Assembly: GCA_000004985.1 (NCBI GenBank)
Contig: GG738875.1
Source of the DNA: Naegleria gruberi
Lineage: Eukaryota
DNA length: 64,000 bases
Direction: 5' to 3' (one strand)
The stretch's first letter is position 1. The number at the start of each line of letters is the position of its first letter. Of the stretch, positions 3,849-63,353 are shown piece by piece. A model generated the notes under the pieces. It ran no database searches. It had not been told where the DNA came from and worked only from the letters and a program-made list of their open reading frames with translations. The position numbers and the translations under genes are program-made.

Positions 3849-3908
3849 NNNNNNNNNNNNNNNNNNNNNNNNNNNNNNNNNNNNNNNNNNNNNNNNNNAA
3901 ATCTCTTT

Positions 3909-43069: not shown

Positions 43070-43684
43070 TTATNNNNNNNNNNNNNNNNNNNNNNNNNNN
43101 NNNNNNNNNNNNNNNNNNNNNNNCTTGTCTGTTTTGAAATGGTAGACTTGTGCCCTTTGTGCCTCCAATGTATAATAGAATAATGTTAATGTGCTGAATT
43201 TTTGTTCGAGAATGTCCTTTGAAATGTAACTCACTAATTGAGGTTTGTGGACCCAATAGGCAAGCGTGTGACTAGTGGCATTCACAAATGGTTGTTTGTT
43301 TTTCTTAAATCTATCACTGATATTTGCTTCAGTTTCTTGTATGTCGGCTCCTCTTAGAAACTTCAAATCAGATCCCTTAAAATTGTCTAAAAGAAGGAAA
43401 ATCGCTTTAGTAAAGTCAAGGCTCATTCCTCCCTCAACAAGACCAAGCATTAAAACTTTGCAAAAAGTTAAAGAGTCCCACAAATGATAATTTTCAAAAT
43501 AAATCCTCTCGGAGTTTTTTTCTATTGTAGATTGCATTGTATTATTTACTTCTTTTGAGGATTGAGTTGTGGTGTTGTTCCTTTCTGTTGCGGTTTGGCT
43601 TTCATTGTTTTGAGTTGTGTTGAAGAGAAATATTAAAAAAGCGATGAATGCAATAAACAAAATCAAATAGTCTGTTAAGGTCAT
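43070..43684 (-). CDS. Hypothetical signal-anchor membrane protein (copy 2). C-terminus runs into gap 43074-43123.
   Basis: Identical to copy 1 except for a few substitutions and an indel near the 3' end. Confidence 0.35.
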   Translation of the reverse strand: MTLTDYLILFIAFIAFLIFLFNTTQNNESQTATERNNTTTQSSKEVNNTMQSTIEKNSERIYFENYHLWDSLTFCKVLMLGLVEGGMSLDFTKAIFLLLDNFKGSDLKFLRGADIQETEANISDRFKKNKQPFVNATSHTLAYWVHKPQLVSYISKDILEQKFSTLTLFYYTLEAQRAQVYHFKTDKXXXXXXXXXXXXXXXXX

Positions 43685-56677: not shown

Positions 56678-58735
56678 TTAATGGAAAGCACCTCCATTAA
56701 CATTCAAAGTGTTACCACCCAAATTGTAAATGTAACCATACAAGTTGACATTGTTAAAGTTGAAAACACCCTTAGTCAAGACGTTACCATAGAATGGACC
56801 ATTAACAGCAACACTGTTACCAATAACCCAGAAAACATTGTTTTGAGTGGCACCATTGGTGAAAACAAAGTTGATATTGTTGGCATTCAAGTTGGTGCTC
56901 AACTTTAAGACAATCTTACCAGTACCAGAGAAGGTAACCTTGCTGTTACCATTCAAACCTTGTGGGAAACAGTAGACACCAGCAGTGAAAGTCAAACCAG
57001 CACTTGGAATGTTTTGATCCAAATTGCTTTGAGTACAAGTGGCAGCAAACAATTCATCATACTTGGCAATGGCATTTTCAATAACTTCAGCAGATTCACC
57101 ATTAGCAACATTGACAGCATAACCAGAGGCAGCAACGAGTTTTTGAACAGCAAAGGCTCTATCAGTGGCAACACTTCCTGGAACAGTCAATGAGGCAGAG
57201 TTTTGAACCAAGATGGATCCCTTTGAAATGACCTTGTATGGAGTCAAGATAGTACCAAAGGTAGTATCATAGTCACATGGCAAGACATTTGGAACGACAT
57301 ATGAGTCAGTAGTGAACTTCAAGTATGGAATTGTCTTATCTTCAAAGTATCCATCGAAAGTCAATTCAATAGTGAGAGCAGTGTAACCTTGAGCTGGATT
57401 TGGGAAGAAGACTTCATATTCGAATGGGTTTCCAGTAGCCTTTGGAGCAACAGTAACAGCAGTGAAAATTCTACCAATAGTGGTTTGTCTGAAATCTCTA
57501 CCATTTGGATTGTTGGCAGACCACAACTTGACAGCAGTAGGAACCTTACCATTCAAAATGTTCAACTTGACATTAACACCAGCAGCAGTGTAAGTGTGAG
57601 AGAAGGTATATTCAGGAAGTTCAATATTTTTCAAGACAGCATAGTAGAATGAGGCAACAGTCAAGACAACATCGGAACCAGTCATACCGTGACCAGTATT
57701 TGGAATATATCTCAAGTGCTTGTTCTTTCTATTTGGCATATCATTATAACTCAAAGTACTCATATCTGGCCAGAAGAATTCATCACCCATAGAGTTGACC
57801 ATATATTTTCTGTACTTGGCAAGATCTTCCTTCCATTCGAATGGATCAATAACTTCACAGAGCTTGGTAAAACCATAAGAGTTGACGTGTGGAGTGAAAC
57901 CAGCAGCAATATAATCATACATGGCAATTGGGAAGTCACAGAGAGAATTGTAAATGTGCTTGATAGCCTTTTGAGTATTTGGAATTTGAATAACGAGTGG
58001 AATGAGAGCCTTAACTCTTGGATCATTGGCAATACCAACTGTCCAAGTAGTCCAACCTCTCTTTGAGGCACCAGCAACAGTGAATTTTTCAATAGTGACA
58101 CCTGACACTTTGGTTGGCACAAAAGATTGAGTAGTATCCAATGCCAAGAGAGATGCCTTAGTCATAGGAAGTCTTGGAATCCACTTAACGTCCCTTGGGA
58201 AGTCGACTATATGCTTCCAAGCATATCCGATAATACCATCTTCAACTCTAACTTGATGCAATGGATCATTGGCATATGTCAATGGTTGATTAGGAATCAT
58301 CTTGACAGTGACACCAATAGTTTTACCAACAGTAGCCATAGCAATAGTGATTGGATCACCAGTTGGAAGACCATCAGTGGTATCTCCGTTAGTAATATAC
58401 ACAAAAGCTTCCTTTAAGCTTTTATCCAAATTGGTTGGAACAACAACTTCGAGATAGTGGAACCACAATGCACGATAACCAAATTCTTCTGGCAACCATT
58501 CAACTGAGGTCATATTAAGTACATATACAGTAGCACCAGTAACGGTGAATTCACTCAATAATTGATATGAATATTTTGGAGTTGGCTTATTTACATAGTC
58601 GGCCATAACTTTCTTATAGTCGATAATTTTGGTTGGGTCAGCAGCAATGTCAAATTGGTCTTCTGCATTGGAAAGGGCAGCAACAAGAGCCAAAATAACA
58701 GCCAACAAGACAATCAAGCTCTTTGAAAGCTTCAT
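56678..58735 (-). CDS. Secreted protein with signal peptide, large N-terminal domain (possibly PhoPQ-activated-pathogenicity-related-like) and C-terminal DUF3494 ice-binding-protein-like beta-helix domain.
   Basis: Signal peptide MKLSKSLIVLLAVILALVAALSNA. C-terminal LTFTAGVYCFPQGL...INFVFTNGATQNNVFWVIGNSVAVNG...GNVLTKGVFNFNNVNL matches the DUF3494 pattern (PGVY...AVFIFQ...NVFWQVGSSATLG...). Confidence 0.55.
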   Translation of the reverse strand: MKLSKSLIVLLAVILALVAALSNAEDQFDIAADPTKIIDYKKVMADYVNKPTPKYSYQLLSEFTVTGATVYVLNMTSVEWLPEEFGYRALWFHYLEVVVPTNLDKSLKEAFVYITNGDTTDGLPTGDPITIAMATVGKTIGVTVKMIPNQPLTYANDPLHQVRVEDGIIGYAWKHIVDFPRDVKWIPRLPMTKASLLALDTTQSFVPTKVSGVTIEKFTVAGASKRGWTTWTVGIANDPRVKALIPLVIQIPNTQKAIKHIYNSLCDFPIAMYDYIAAGFTPHVNSYGFTKLCEVIDPFEWKEDLAKYRKYMVNSMGDEFFWPDMSTLSYNDMPNRKNKHLRYIPNTGHGMTGSDVVLTVASFYYAVLKNIELPEYTFSHTYTAAGVNVKLNILNGKVPTAVKLWSANNPNGRDFRQTTIGRIFTAVTVAPKATGNPFEYEVFFPNPAQGYTALTIELTFDGYFEDKTIPYLKFTTDSYVVPNVLPCDYDTTFGTILTPYKVISKGSILVQNSASLTVPGSVATDRAFAVQKLVAASGYAVNVANGESAEVIENAIAKYDELFAATCTQSNLDQNIPSAGLTFTAGVYCFPQGLNGNSKVTFSGTGKIVLKLSTNLNANNINFVFTNGATQNNVFWVIGNSVAVNGPFYGNVLTKGVFNFNNVNLYGYIYNLGGNTLNVNGGAFH

Positions 58736-59458: not shown

Positions 59459-60955
59459 TTACCAGAACACATTGAAGTATGGTTCGATTTCATGTTCATA
59501 AAGAAGATCATCATCTTGTTCAATTTTCACAAAGGCAAAACAATTCACCTCCACAATGTGATCCTTGGCTTGCTCTTCATTGTCAACCTGGTAAACTACT
59601 TGATCGCAAACATTGCAAAATCTATTACTATTTTTGTAAACTTGTAGAGATTCAAATTTGAGAGGACATTTGTAGATACATTCGCATTGATTGACTAAAT
59701 TCCATTCATACTCTTTAATTCTGTAATATTTCTTTCGTTCTTTTGAAATATTAATAGTAGGATTATGTATTTTGATGTGATTGATTCTTCTTCTAAGAAC
59801 GCAAAGCCAATTCTTGATATTTAGGTTGTTTCCATTAAAGTTTGGAAAATAAAAACAAACTAATGGTTTCCAAATTTCCAATTGAACTCTTTCAAATGCT
59901 GAACTTTCTTCATTGACGATAGAGGTGATGTTATCGACAACATGACAAAGGGCTCCAGAATTATCTGATTGTGGATCTATTCTTCTATTGAAGAATAGAC
60001 TCAATAATGATTGGTTTACCCATCGCAAATCTATTCAATTCTGATAAATTCAGAAACTTCCAATCAGTATTAGAATCTCAGATGGCAATTCATAGATAGT
60101 AAATTGTGAAATAGATTCTCCAGTACCCAAATCCACATTAATACTACAAATATTCATTAATCCATTTAAAATACTGTGTGGAATAGATGCTGAATTGGGA
60201 ATATCCAATTCTAATCCAATACTTGCCACATTATCCATTGCTTCCTGAACTAACTTATTCAATTCGGGTGTGGTCGTTAAATTCATTAATTTCATATATG
60301 AACGGTTCCAAACCACAGGTGAATTCTCATAGTAATTCAACACCTTCAATCCATATTCAATTACTGGCATCATGTCTAACATTTCCAATAAATCAGCTTG
60401 CATTTTTCCAATTTTCTCTCCCTCACTCAAAATTAAACAATCTCTACAAGATTCCACCTGTCCCACTATTGTTCGAAACACAACTCCCAATTGTTGAAAC
60501 ATTGGAGCAAGTATAGGAACTGGAATGGTGGCGGTGAATCCACTTCTGATGTAAATATTGCGTGGAGATCTTTCTCCAATTTTTGCCCTTGTTTCAAATT
60601 TGAAAGATTGAATTTGTTCAATCAATTCTTCAATTTCTGATGAATTTGTAAAGATTAGTCCAACATTTCCATTCAAATATTCGCAAATTTTGAGTAATGA
60701 CTCTGGATTGTGTTTCCTCTCCGAGGGTTTCACATTAAATTGAATGTCCTGAGCCAAGTTTCGAATAGCACTCTTGATCAATGTATTCTTTCCTTTCAAT
60801 AATATTGCTCTTCCTCTCAATTTCATTCGAATTATTTGCAATTGATCCGATTTCATACGAGTATCTATTTCAACAATAATTACATTCGAATGATCATGAA
60901 AATGTTGAATGACATCCTCGAATTTTACACTATTTTCATCATCATTCATTTTCAC
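59459..60955 (-). pseudogene. P0/Mrt4 (uL10)-like domain + F-box + Cys-rich C-terminal domain protein, disrupted copy. ORFs 60050-60955 and 59459-60028 are separated by a compensating -1/+1 indel pair with two in-frame TGA codons.
   Basis: Colinear with the intact paralog 61274-62689. Relative to it, ...agtttc-tgaattt... lacks a T and ...gggtaaaccaatca... has one extra base. Between the two, the frame reads F*IYQN*. Confidence 0.55.
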
Positions 60956-61273: not shown

Positions 61274-62689
61274 TCATTCATCCCAATAAATAATTCCCAT
61301 AGCTAAATCATCATCGTATTCATCCCCTCCTTCCACAAAAGCAATGCAATTTCCCTTAATGATATGATGTTTGGCTTGTTCTTCACTACCAACTTGGTAA
61401 ACTATCTTGTTGCAGACATTACACATTCTACTGGAAGAGGTGTGAAGTGGAAGAGAATCGTATTTGAGAGGACATTTGTAGATCCATTCACATTGGTTGA
61501 TGAGATTCCATTCGTAACTCTTAATTGCAAAAGATTCGTTTCTTGCTGATGCAAGGTTGACTGAAGGCATGTGTAGCTTGATATGGTCAATTCTTCTTCT
61601 GAGAACGTGGAGCCAATTCTTGATATTTAAATTATTTTTCCTAAAGTTAGGGAAGTAGAAACAAACTAATGGTTTCCAAATTTCCAATTGAACTCGTGTA
61701 AATAGTTCACTCTCTTCATTTATCATAGCAATTGAATTCTTGAGTGATTTCTCAATTGAATGAGATTGTGAAATAATTCTTCTATTGAAGAATAGACTCA
61801 ATAATGATTGATTACCCATCGCAAATCTATTCAATTCTGATAAATTCAAGAAACTTGCAATTAATATCAAAATTTCAGATGGTAATTCATTTACAGTAAA
61901 TTGTTGAATGGAATTAATTGTTCTCAGTTCTACCAAAACTCGACCGACATTCAATAATCCATTGAAAAGACTATGTGGAATAGATGCTGAATTCGGAATA
62001 TCCAATTCTAATCCAATACTTGCCACATTATCTACTGCTTCCTGAATTATACTATTCAAATTTAGAGATGCTCTCAGGTTTTCATATGTTTGATTCCAAA
62101 CCACGTGTGAATTTTCATAGGAAGCTACCACTTTCAGTCCGTATGCAATCATCGGTTCCATCTTCAACAATTCCAAAAAATCTGCCTTTTCCTTTGTAAT
62201 TTTCTCTCCAGCTCTCAAAAGTAAAAAATCTGTCGATGCATATACATCCTGTTGAGCTATGTCTCCAACCTTTGCCTTTGCTTCAAATTTGAAAGATTGA
62301 ATTTGTTCAATCAATTCTTCAATTTCTGTTGAATTTGTAAAGATTAGTCCAACATTTCCTCTCAAATATTCGCAAATTTGATAAAGAACTTCTGGATTGT
62401 GCTTCCACTCTGATGGTTTCACATTAAATTGAATATCCTGAGCCAAGTTTCGAATAGCACTTCTGATCAATGTATTCTTTCCCACCAATAATTCGGCCTT
62501 CTCTCTCAATTTCATTCGAACTATTTGTAACTGATCCGATTTCATTCGAGGATGTATTTTAATAATAATTACATTCGAATGATCATGAAAATGTTGAATG
62601 ACCTTCTCGAATTTTGCACATTTATGAGAGAGACCCTTCTTTTCGGAATGAAATTGTTGTTTTGAAGCTGATTCGTCCAAGTTTTTCAT
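61274..62689 (-). CDS. Ribosomal P0/Mrt4 (uL10)-like domain fused to an F-box and a Cys-rich C-terminal domain (intact paralog).
   Basis: QLQIVRMKLREKAELLVGKNTLIRSAIR, LRGNVGLIFTNSTEIEELIEQIQSFKF and LLRAGEKITKEKADFLELL match uL10/P0/Mrt4 conserved blocks. F-box-like LPSEILILIASFLNLSELNRFAMGNQS. C-terminal CPLKYDSL...CNVCNKIVYQV. Confidence 0.6.
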   Translation of the reverse strand: MKNLDESASKQQFHSEKKGLSHKCAKFEKVIQHFHDHSNVIIIKIHPRMKSDQLQIVRMKLREKAELLVGKNTLIRSAIRNLAQDIQFNVKPSEWKHNPEVLYQICEYLRGNVGLIFTNSTEIEELIEQIQSFKFEAKAKVGDIAQQDVYASTDFLLLRAGEKITKEKADFLELLKMEPMIAYGLKVVASYENSHVVWNQTYENLRASLNLNSIIQEAVDNVASIGLELDIPNSASIPHSLFNGLLNVGRVLVELRTINSIQQFTVNELPSEILILIASFLNLSELNRFAMGNQSLLSLFFNRRIISQSHSIEKSLKNSIAMINEESELFTRVQLEIWKPLVCFYFPNFRKNNLNIKNWLHVLRRRIDHIKLHMPSVNLASARNESFAIKSYEWNLINQCEWIYKCPLKYDSLPLHTSSSRMCNVCNKIVYQVGSEEQAKHHIIKGNCIAFVEGGDEYDDDLAMGIIYWDE

Positions 62690-62807
62690 TCCAACTCAAC
62701 CTCTGAAGGAATATCAATGCATTTCCAGCTGGTTCAGTAACCTTTCTAGTCATCAACTCCATTCGAGAATCGTAAAATATCGTCGATCCACCCTCAAACT
62801 CTCCATC

Positions 62808-63353
62808 CTATTGAGAATTCAGATAAATAATGAGAGTGAGATAACTCTTTGTTTTGTTCTTGTGATCCTCAAAGCTGCCATCGACGTGTTTGTTGAAATA
62901 ATGCCCTGGTTTATACTTGCATAATCTCCAACGAGGATTTATACTTGCTAAGTGCAATGTTCTGCCATCCTTACTCAATGTTTGTGGCAGATGTTGCTTT
63001 ATACGATTCCAGACTATTTCAGTAAATTTTGGATCGTCACTCATTAAACGATCATTAAATCGATCATTATAGGCATAGCAAAACTTATCCGCATCCTCAT
63101 ATCCCATCTTTTCACTCAACTCTATCATTAATTTACATTCGTCTTTTGAAAGCACTTGATCCAATACGAAACATGGTTTCTTTACTTGTTCAACCTCCTC
63201 AACTGTTTTTCTTGAAACTCGTGGACACCAATTATTCGAATCCATCAGAAGCATATTTTTTTGTATTTGTGAAATATTCTCATCATTAGAATCATTCAGT
63301 ATTGGTGCATAGACCATCTCGTTCCATCCTGTAGGAGCAGAAAGTAAAGTCAT
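62808..63353 (-). CDS. 2-oxoglutarate/Fe(II)-dependent oxygenase (prolyl-4-hydroxylase-like) N-terminal part. The ORF is terminated by a TAG inside the conserved core. The conserved continuation is at ~62640-62807.
   Basis: RWRLCKYKPGHYFNKHVDG...SYLTLIIYLN matches the P4H/2OG-FeII HxD...TxLxYLN block. Immediately after the TAG the same frame encodes DGEFEGGSTIFY...AGNALIF, matching the EGGET.F...G.ALLF blocks. Confidence 0.5.
   Translation of the reverse strand: MTLLSAPTGWNEMVYAPILNDSNDENISQIQKNMLLMDSNNWCPRVSRKTVEEVEQVKKPCFVLDQVLSKDECKLMIELSEKMGYEDADKFCYAYNDRFNDRLMSDDPKFTEIVWNRIKQHLPQTLSKDGRTLHLASINPRWRLCKYKPGHYFNKHVDGSFEDHKNKTKSYLTLIIYLNSQ

Follow-up and report, generated by a model that had tools for sequence, protein, structure and literature searches.

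A broken F-box in a P0-like gene of Naegleria gruberi NEG-M and its possible origin in gene conversion from the tandem paralog

Inactivation by gene conversion between tandem duplicates is known from the textbook cases CYP21A2/CYP21A1P and SBDS/SBDSP, and the usual hallmark of an ectopic conversion event is a patch that is identical to a paralog at several sites and lies between shared flanks. Lineage-specific families of F-box genes, as described in plants and nematodes, evolve by birth and death. Here we describe a locus in Naegleria gruberi NEG-M that can be compared with both. It lies in a stretch of 64,000 nucleotides of contig GG738875.1 (the window), in which a tblastn search identified two P0-like F-box paralogs and no others: copy A, at 59459-60955 on the minus strand, and its intact tandem neighbour, copy B. 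Copy A can be aligned over its whole length with the open reading frame of copy B, which is intact and encodes 471 aa, and, as assembled, is divided into a front ORF of 301/299 aa (60050-60955) and a back ORF of 189 aa (59459-60028). The front ORF is 100% identical to XP_002675979. The features to which we refer are listed here in the direction of transcription, copy A first.

60050-60949, minus strand: front ORF of copy A, from the ATG at 60949 to the TGA at 60050-60052; 299 aa; XP_002675979 / NAEGRDRAFT_49990, named 'predicted protein' at NCBI; it holds a P0-like domain (Ribosomal_L10 + RL10P_insert) and then F-box helix 1 (LPSEILILIGSF, starting at 60088).
60054-60056, minus strand: upstream lesion, a run of three T (TTT) in place of TTTT in the ortholog (TTT CTG) and of TTC TTG in paralog B; one base short of both.
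60050-60052, minus strand: first in-frame TGA, made directly by the 1-nt deletion (TTC TGA).
60018-60053, minus strand: out-of-frame F-box core, 36 nt that read LNLSELNRFAMG in the -1 register; helix 2 and the loops of the F-box in the AF2 model.
60035-60037, minus strand: second in-frame TGA, inside the out-of-frame stretch.
60019-60024, minus strand: downstream lesion, a B-like patch GATGGG in place of AAAGG in the ortholog; two substitutions and an extra G.
59459-60034, minus strand: back part of copy A, open for 191 codons, with F-box helix 3, the helical linker and, at the C-terminus, the Cys-rich domain; free of methionine codons.
61274-62689, minus strand: copy B, the tandem paralog with an uninterrupted frame; 471 aa; annotated as 'ribosomal large P0-like protein' (XP_002675980); probable source of the B-like patch.

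Copy A shares with CYP21A2/CYP21A1P and SBDS/SBDSP a short paralog-identical patch, identical flanks and a frame break in an otherwise healthy gene. It differs from them in that the donor is itself an intact gene rather than a pseudogene, and in that the break stems from a register conflict between compensated indels and not from a defect already present in the donor; the direction and reality of the event we infer from a single comparator. In the same way, the locus resembles the F-box families of plants and nematodes in its tandem copies, lineage expansion, fast-evolving parts outside the F-box and strain-specific pseudogenes, while its partner domains are unusual, the one at the N-terminus being P0-like and the one at the C-terminus Cys-rich. 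Finally, as in other compensated frameshift pairs, the -1 and the +1 of copy A are 35 nt apart and the frame downstream is restored, but the interval between them holds two stops, so that the protein is not rescued. The kind of event is a familiar one, ordinary gene-family decay, and the instance is new.

The window carries genes with eukaryotic domains around the two copies (RasGEF/DOCK, MAP10) and has a GC content of about 33%. Three 50-N scaffold gaps, at 1791-1840, 3849-3898 and 43074-43123, mark it as draft assembly, the gap nearest to the lesion being 17 kb away. At 56678-58735 (minus strand) lies a gene for a secreted-looking protein of 685 aa with a PhoPQ-activated pathogenicity-related domain and an ice-binding-like domain.

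The intact gene encodes, in this order, a P0-derived domain, an F-box, a helical linker and, at the C-terminus, a Cys-rich domain. Copy A matches PF00466 (Ribosomal_L10) with 42 bits (cut-off 22.8) and PF17777 (RL10P_insert) with 34 bits (cut-off 29.1), and its residues 9-273 align with residues 13-254 of P0 among PDB P0 chains (E = 9e-30). Both the L10 rRNA-binding domain and the eukaryote/archaea-specific insertion domain of uL10/P0 are therefore present. The acidic C-terminal stalk tail of uL10/P0 is absent: the alignment with P0 stops at about residue 254, and the F-box module stands in its place, so the protein is P0-like and not a P0 orthologue. Identity with Mrt4, the nuclear paralog of P0 and a factor in pre-60S assembly, was rejected, as the best Mrt4 chain gave E = 1.4e-5 (residues 75-209) against 9e-30 for P0. 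Copy B matches PF00466 only, having lost the match to RL10P_insert, and its P0-like part is eroded; at about 62224, in both strains compared below, it lacks 33 codons of the P0 insertion domain (TATIPVP...SCRDC; 60437-60535 in copy A).

The F-box itself scores below the profile thresholds. The intact ortholog of copy A reaches 19.4 bits for F-box-like (cut-off 24.3) and 14.9 for F-box (cut-off 20.5), copy B reaches 18.7, and the N. lovaniensis relative P0007 reaches 20.1 for F-box against the cut-off of 20.5. The F-box motif LPxEIL...L..F is present, and a three-helix F-box fold is followed by the helical linker. Both copies end in a stretch of ~60 aa (59462-59680 and 61277-61500, minus strand) with the terminal Cys-rich motif CEWIYKCP...C..C...G.C[VI]AF, with a near-invariant C-x5-C-P...C-x2-C pattern (C139, C145, P146, C162, C165). 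No Pfam match and no PDB fold match was found for this domain; the motif also occurs on its own in metagenome proteins of 60-110 aa, and it may be an undescribed small metal-binding domain.

An earlier note on this DNA had reported a -1/+1 pair with in-frame stops at 59990-60070, and the same pair appeared in the minus-strand reading, in the alignment of copy A with copy B and in the three-frame translation. At the upstream join copy A reads GGAAGTTTCTGAATTT and copy B GCAAGTTTCTTGAATTT (in a wider quotation, AAGTTTCTGAATTT and AAGTTTCTTGAATTT), copy A being shorter by one base; at the downstream join the two read GGGTAAACCAATCA and GGGTAATCAATCA, and copy A is longer by one base. Since the total of 1497 nt is conserved, the downstream frame is restored. 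Between the lesions the zero frame gives F*IYQN*IDLRW, and the shifted frame still gives LNLSELNRFAMG, so that the affected stretch is the F-box core, as had been proposed. The second lesion had been described as the insertion of a single base. One base is indeed extra, but this is not a simple insertion of A: the AAA in GGTAAACC is common to the intact ortholog, and because TAAACC is shared by the window and that ortholog, A is not the inserted base; the base in excess sits a few nt further upstream, within a B-like patch. Measured against the ortholog, GCAAAGG has become GCGATGGG, and all three changes match paralog B.

The intact ortholog comes from a close strain. The front ORF shares its 90% cluster with another protein, of 496 aa, which derives from an ENA metagenome assembly, and 496 aa is the exact length of copy A once both indels are repaired. 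Its contig, here called L001 (9,425 bp; ERZ929261, run ERR1078381), has the gene order copy B, copy A, PhoPQ-related, MAP10-like, the same as the window, and aligns with window positions 62697-53483 at 98.83% identity over 9.2 kb. Comparison with an orthologous locus in a related strain had been suggested as a check of the break, and in L001 copy A is an uninterrupted 496-aa ORF that reads GSFLNLSELNRFAKVNQSLLSLFF. The two indels of copy A are the only frame-breaking coding differences in those 9.2 kb; the two other coding indels, both in runs of low complexity, measure 3 and 6 nt, and the rest are intergenic. The frame that holds two TGA codons in NEG-M is thus intact in a strain that is 98.8% identical, as expected of a pseudogene. 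The break also looks young, as first described: the syntenic strain, at ~98.8% identity, is intact, and the 191 codons past the second stop are still open.

L001 is the sole comparator. Among JGI metagenome contigs no further relatives were found, either with the peptide patterns IQHFHDH / CFYFPNF or with the exact 27-mer GAATTTATCAGAATTGAATAGATTTGC, and exact-protein look-ups with copy B, the copy A front ORF and the 685-aa neighbour returned zero indexed contigs. A literature search for PRJEB11402 found no paper that mentions it. The gene for the 685-aa PhoPQ-related protein keeps 99.8% nucleotide identity in L001. The first ~206 nt of L001 (1-206) do not align with the NEG-M sequence upstream of copy B (62698-62950), where a 181-aa ORF lies (62808-63353), because synteny between the strains breaks here or because the end of the contig is chimeric; for a tRNA-like string at the start of L001, ARAGORN made no tRNA call.

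With the ortholog at hand, the broken sequence can be taken apart exactly. The ortholog reads GGAAG TTTTCTG AATTTATCAGAATTGAATAGATTT GCAAAGGTAAAC CAATCA. Paralog B, in both strains, reads GCAAG TTTCTTG, the same middle, and GCGATGGGTAAT CAATCA. The window reads GGAAG TTTCTG, again the same middle, and GCGATGGGTAAAC CAATCA. It is the ortholog with exactly two edits, the removal of one T and the change of GCAAAGG to GCGATGGG. From TGAATTT on, it is also paralog B through GGTAA and then the ortholog from ACCAATCA, and the GGTAA/ACCAATCA junction falls between two hidden compensating indels (AAG GTA AAC in the A-type, ATG GGT AAT in the B-type). Over eight variant sites, the window follows the pattern A-B-A-B-B-B-A-A.

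What makes such a mixture harmful is that the intact A-type and B-type F-box cores differ by two compensated indel pairs, TTT-CTG against TTC-TTG at the upstream site and the AAG-GTA-AAC against ATG-GGT-AAT pair at the downstream one. A mixture with one member from each type therefore shifts the frame. The downstream pair is a genuine compensated pair over a single codon, KV in the A-type and MG in the B-type; when window 60013-60026 is set beside L001 ~2880-2895 and copy B, the intact types differ there by -1/+1 over one codon, KVN against MGN.

These relations lead us to favour, with modest confidence, the reading that copy A is a strain- or allele-specific pseudogene, produced by a patchy ectopic gene conversion in which the tandem paralog B was the donor. 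The patch GCGATGGG equals B at 3/3 variant sites, it lies between flanks of 27 and 35 nt that are identical in A and B, the right-hand junction can be reconstructed exactly from two pieces, and paralog B lies 1.3 kb from the patch. A small recombination accident with copy B would then have inactivated copy A very recently, either in the NEG-M lineage or in a single allele of NEG-M. A short B-to-A conversion, or a heteroduplex-repair patch, would have brought in the extra G of B while the extra A of copy A was kept, giving the +1. The -1 would have come from the T-run 35 nt upstream, which lost one T either during that patchy repair or through a separate slip, and the 36 nt between the lesions would thereby have come to lie out of frame, with two TGA, at unchanged net length. 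The lesions themselves, their exact relation to ortholog and paralog, the intact ortholog and the domain content are observed directly, whereas gene conversion as the mechanism, its direction from B to A, and the presence of the lesion in the organism rather than in the assembly alone are what we infer here; that the lesion is real in NEG-M, in at least one allele, seems somewhat the better supposition.

The two lesions do not fit a single simple tract equally well. A conversion tract with two breakpoints accounts exactly for the downstream +1 but not for the upstream -1, as neither a prefix of A with a suffix of B nor the reverse gives TTTCTG, and this simple form was rejected for the upstream lesion, which needs patchy repair of heteroduplex loops or an additional slippage within the T-run. 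Copy A differs from the ortholog at 16 places in 1,491 nt, four of them within 37 nt (P about 0.07 for any 4 of 16), and two indels of opposite sign would fall so close together with P about 0.025. With statistics this marginal, the clustering favours one complex event over independent mutations only modestly. Nucleotide identity between A and B is itself a mosaic, ranging from 0.55 to 0.97 over 60-nt windows. Several stretches of 35-47 nt are identical in the two copies, and by codon shuffling the longest of them has P about 0.004-0.012. The patchiness suggests repeated short gene conversions or uneven constraint, and the long runs are consistent with earlier exchanges between the copies.

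The most serious alternative is that the sequence exists in no molecule at all. NEG-M would carry two intact copy A alleles, one ortholog-like and one with a B-type core, and the columns of the Sanger draft would have been mixed in the consensus. We regard this as quite possible, though short of probable. A column-wise mix of two in-frame sequences, the ortholog-like TTTTCTG/GCAAAGGTAAAC and the B-like TTTCTTG/GCGATGGGTAATC, gives the window exactly and accounts for the conserved net length, and the window is of draft quality, with its three 50-N gaps. N. gruberi is moreover described as heterozygous in a passage of PMC9928731, citing Fritz-Laylin 2010. Set against this, long Sanger reads span all seven variant columns (T3/T4, CTG/CTTG, G/A, T/A, GGG/GG, AAA/AA, C/T), and a majority vote ought not to switch four times in 45 nt; the distance to the nearest assembly gap (17 kb) and the lack of any other frame-breaking discrepancy with L001 over 9.2 kb also tell against a local failure of the consensus, and a fully B-converted allele was not seen in the protein look-ups.

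An old frameshift would reverse the order of events. On this account the ancestor of both copy A sequences already stood at +1 (GCGATGGGTAAAC), after which the L001 strain regained the frame through loss of a G five nt upstream, and in NEG-M a T was lost 35 nt upstream. TAAACC is found in copy A of both strains, unlike in B, and with B as the outgroup simple parsimony makes GCG ATG GG ancestral. However, a broken gene would have to persist for long and then be repaired, selection could not have favoured the NEG-M 'repair', which produces a TGA at once, and about four events are called for against one or two for conversion. We therefore consider this history very improbable. Polarised by parsimony with the one comparator, conversion in NEG-M would amount to one or two events.

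Less probable again, and in our view hardly credible, is a functional interruption, whether through two programmed frameshifts (-1 on G-UUU-C where the UGA stands, then +1 at GGU-A-AAC), through stop-codon read-through, or through removal of an in-frame GT..AG mini-intron of 27 or 81 nt, the last of which would yield an isoform lacking the F-box. In-frame GT..AG segments of 27 and 81 nt whose removal would take out both stops do exist, and the context UUU-C-UGA would in principle permit P-site slippage. But the ortholog and the paralog code straight through this region in a single frame as a plain F-box under strong conservation (omega 0.06), and the interruption is not conserved, on which ground we rejected programmed frameshifting, read-through and the mini-intron alike. 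Read-through would give F*IYQN*IDLRW, which bears no relation to the family, GTTTCT makes a weak candidate for a 5' splice site, and the JGI gene model ends at the TGA and leaves the GT..AG segments unused. For Naegleria, 27 nt is a very short intron. Two independent base-call errors, the other explanation offered in the earlier note, are effectively excluded, because the downstream lesion carries two substitutions that match paralog B.

Under the favoured reading, gene conversion from copy B, the first TGA would end translation after F-box helix 1, and the 299-aa P0-like fragment, which has the length annotated by NCBI, would be the only plausible product. Downstream, the frame stays open for 191 codons (P about 1e-7 by composition; the other frames have 10 and 22 stops). 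As it holds no methionine codon, ordinary initiation cannot give rise to the C-terminal domain as a protein of its own. This removes the proposal that copy A loses only its F-box and keeps both flanking domains as a natural dominant-negative, since the TGA comes after helix 1 and what follows is without a start. The rest of copy A would be a dead open frame that has not yet decayed. More speculatively, and with little weight attached, a bait-only P0-like protein of 299 aa made in NEG-M could antagonise the intact copy B, such baits might recognise orphan partners, for example free P1/P2 stalk proteins, and paralogs with compensated indel pairs might be mutually 'poisonous' donors.

Before the break, both copies were under purifying selection, with omega at 0.44 in the N-terminal part, 0.06 in the F-box and 0.25 in the C-terminal part. 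Polarised by the paralog, nonsynonymous to synonymous changes in copy A number 5:0 on the NEG-M branch against 0:2 in the L001 strain, which weakly suggests relaxed constraint on copy A in NEG-M. Copy B, its ORF intact, shows the mirror pattern, 0:4 in NEG-M against 5:1 in the L001 strain, so that skews of this kind occur where there is no lesion; the numbers are small, and polarisation by the paralog is confounded by gene conversion. The mirror pattern could reflect reciprocal relaxation of redundant paralogs, or an artefact of conversion and polarisation.

Beyond the two copies, the F-box with its C-terminal module of ~170 aa (59459-60088 and 61274-61906, minus strand) has 113 relatives in an exhaustive profile search, 47 of them at E<1e-10. 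Those with a source name are from Naegleria, and most stand alone, with 200-290 aa. The module is also found fused to a Cpn60/TCP-1 fragment (CCT apical domain) in N. gruberi NAEGRDRAFT_75352, to domains II/III of eEF1A in N. fowleri FDP41_004214, and to an N-terminus of 410 aa of unknown kind in NAEGRDRAFT_50526. The module might, at a guess that we rate as rather unlikely, mark a Naegleria family of predicted ubiquitin-ligase adaptors, several of which use captured pieces of abundant machines (P0, CCT, eEF1A) as baits. The titles and abstracts listed in a literature search on Naegleria F-box proteins did not reveal this family. The F-box fusions to copies of P0, CCT and eEF1A are the more interesting lead, one that is separate from the frameshift and no evidence about it.

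For the genome of N. gruberi, the finding means that NAEGRDRAFT_49990 represents the front half of a disrupted gene, behind which 191 codons lie unannotated. The locus is not marked as a pseudogene in the NCBI annotation, and the site deserves a flag, as a pseudogene or as a consensus error. It also illustrates a general hazard of such gene families: where compensated indels set two paralogs apart, consensus callers working on a heterozygous draft can be misled, and the copies can break each other by partial gene conversion.
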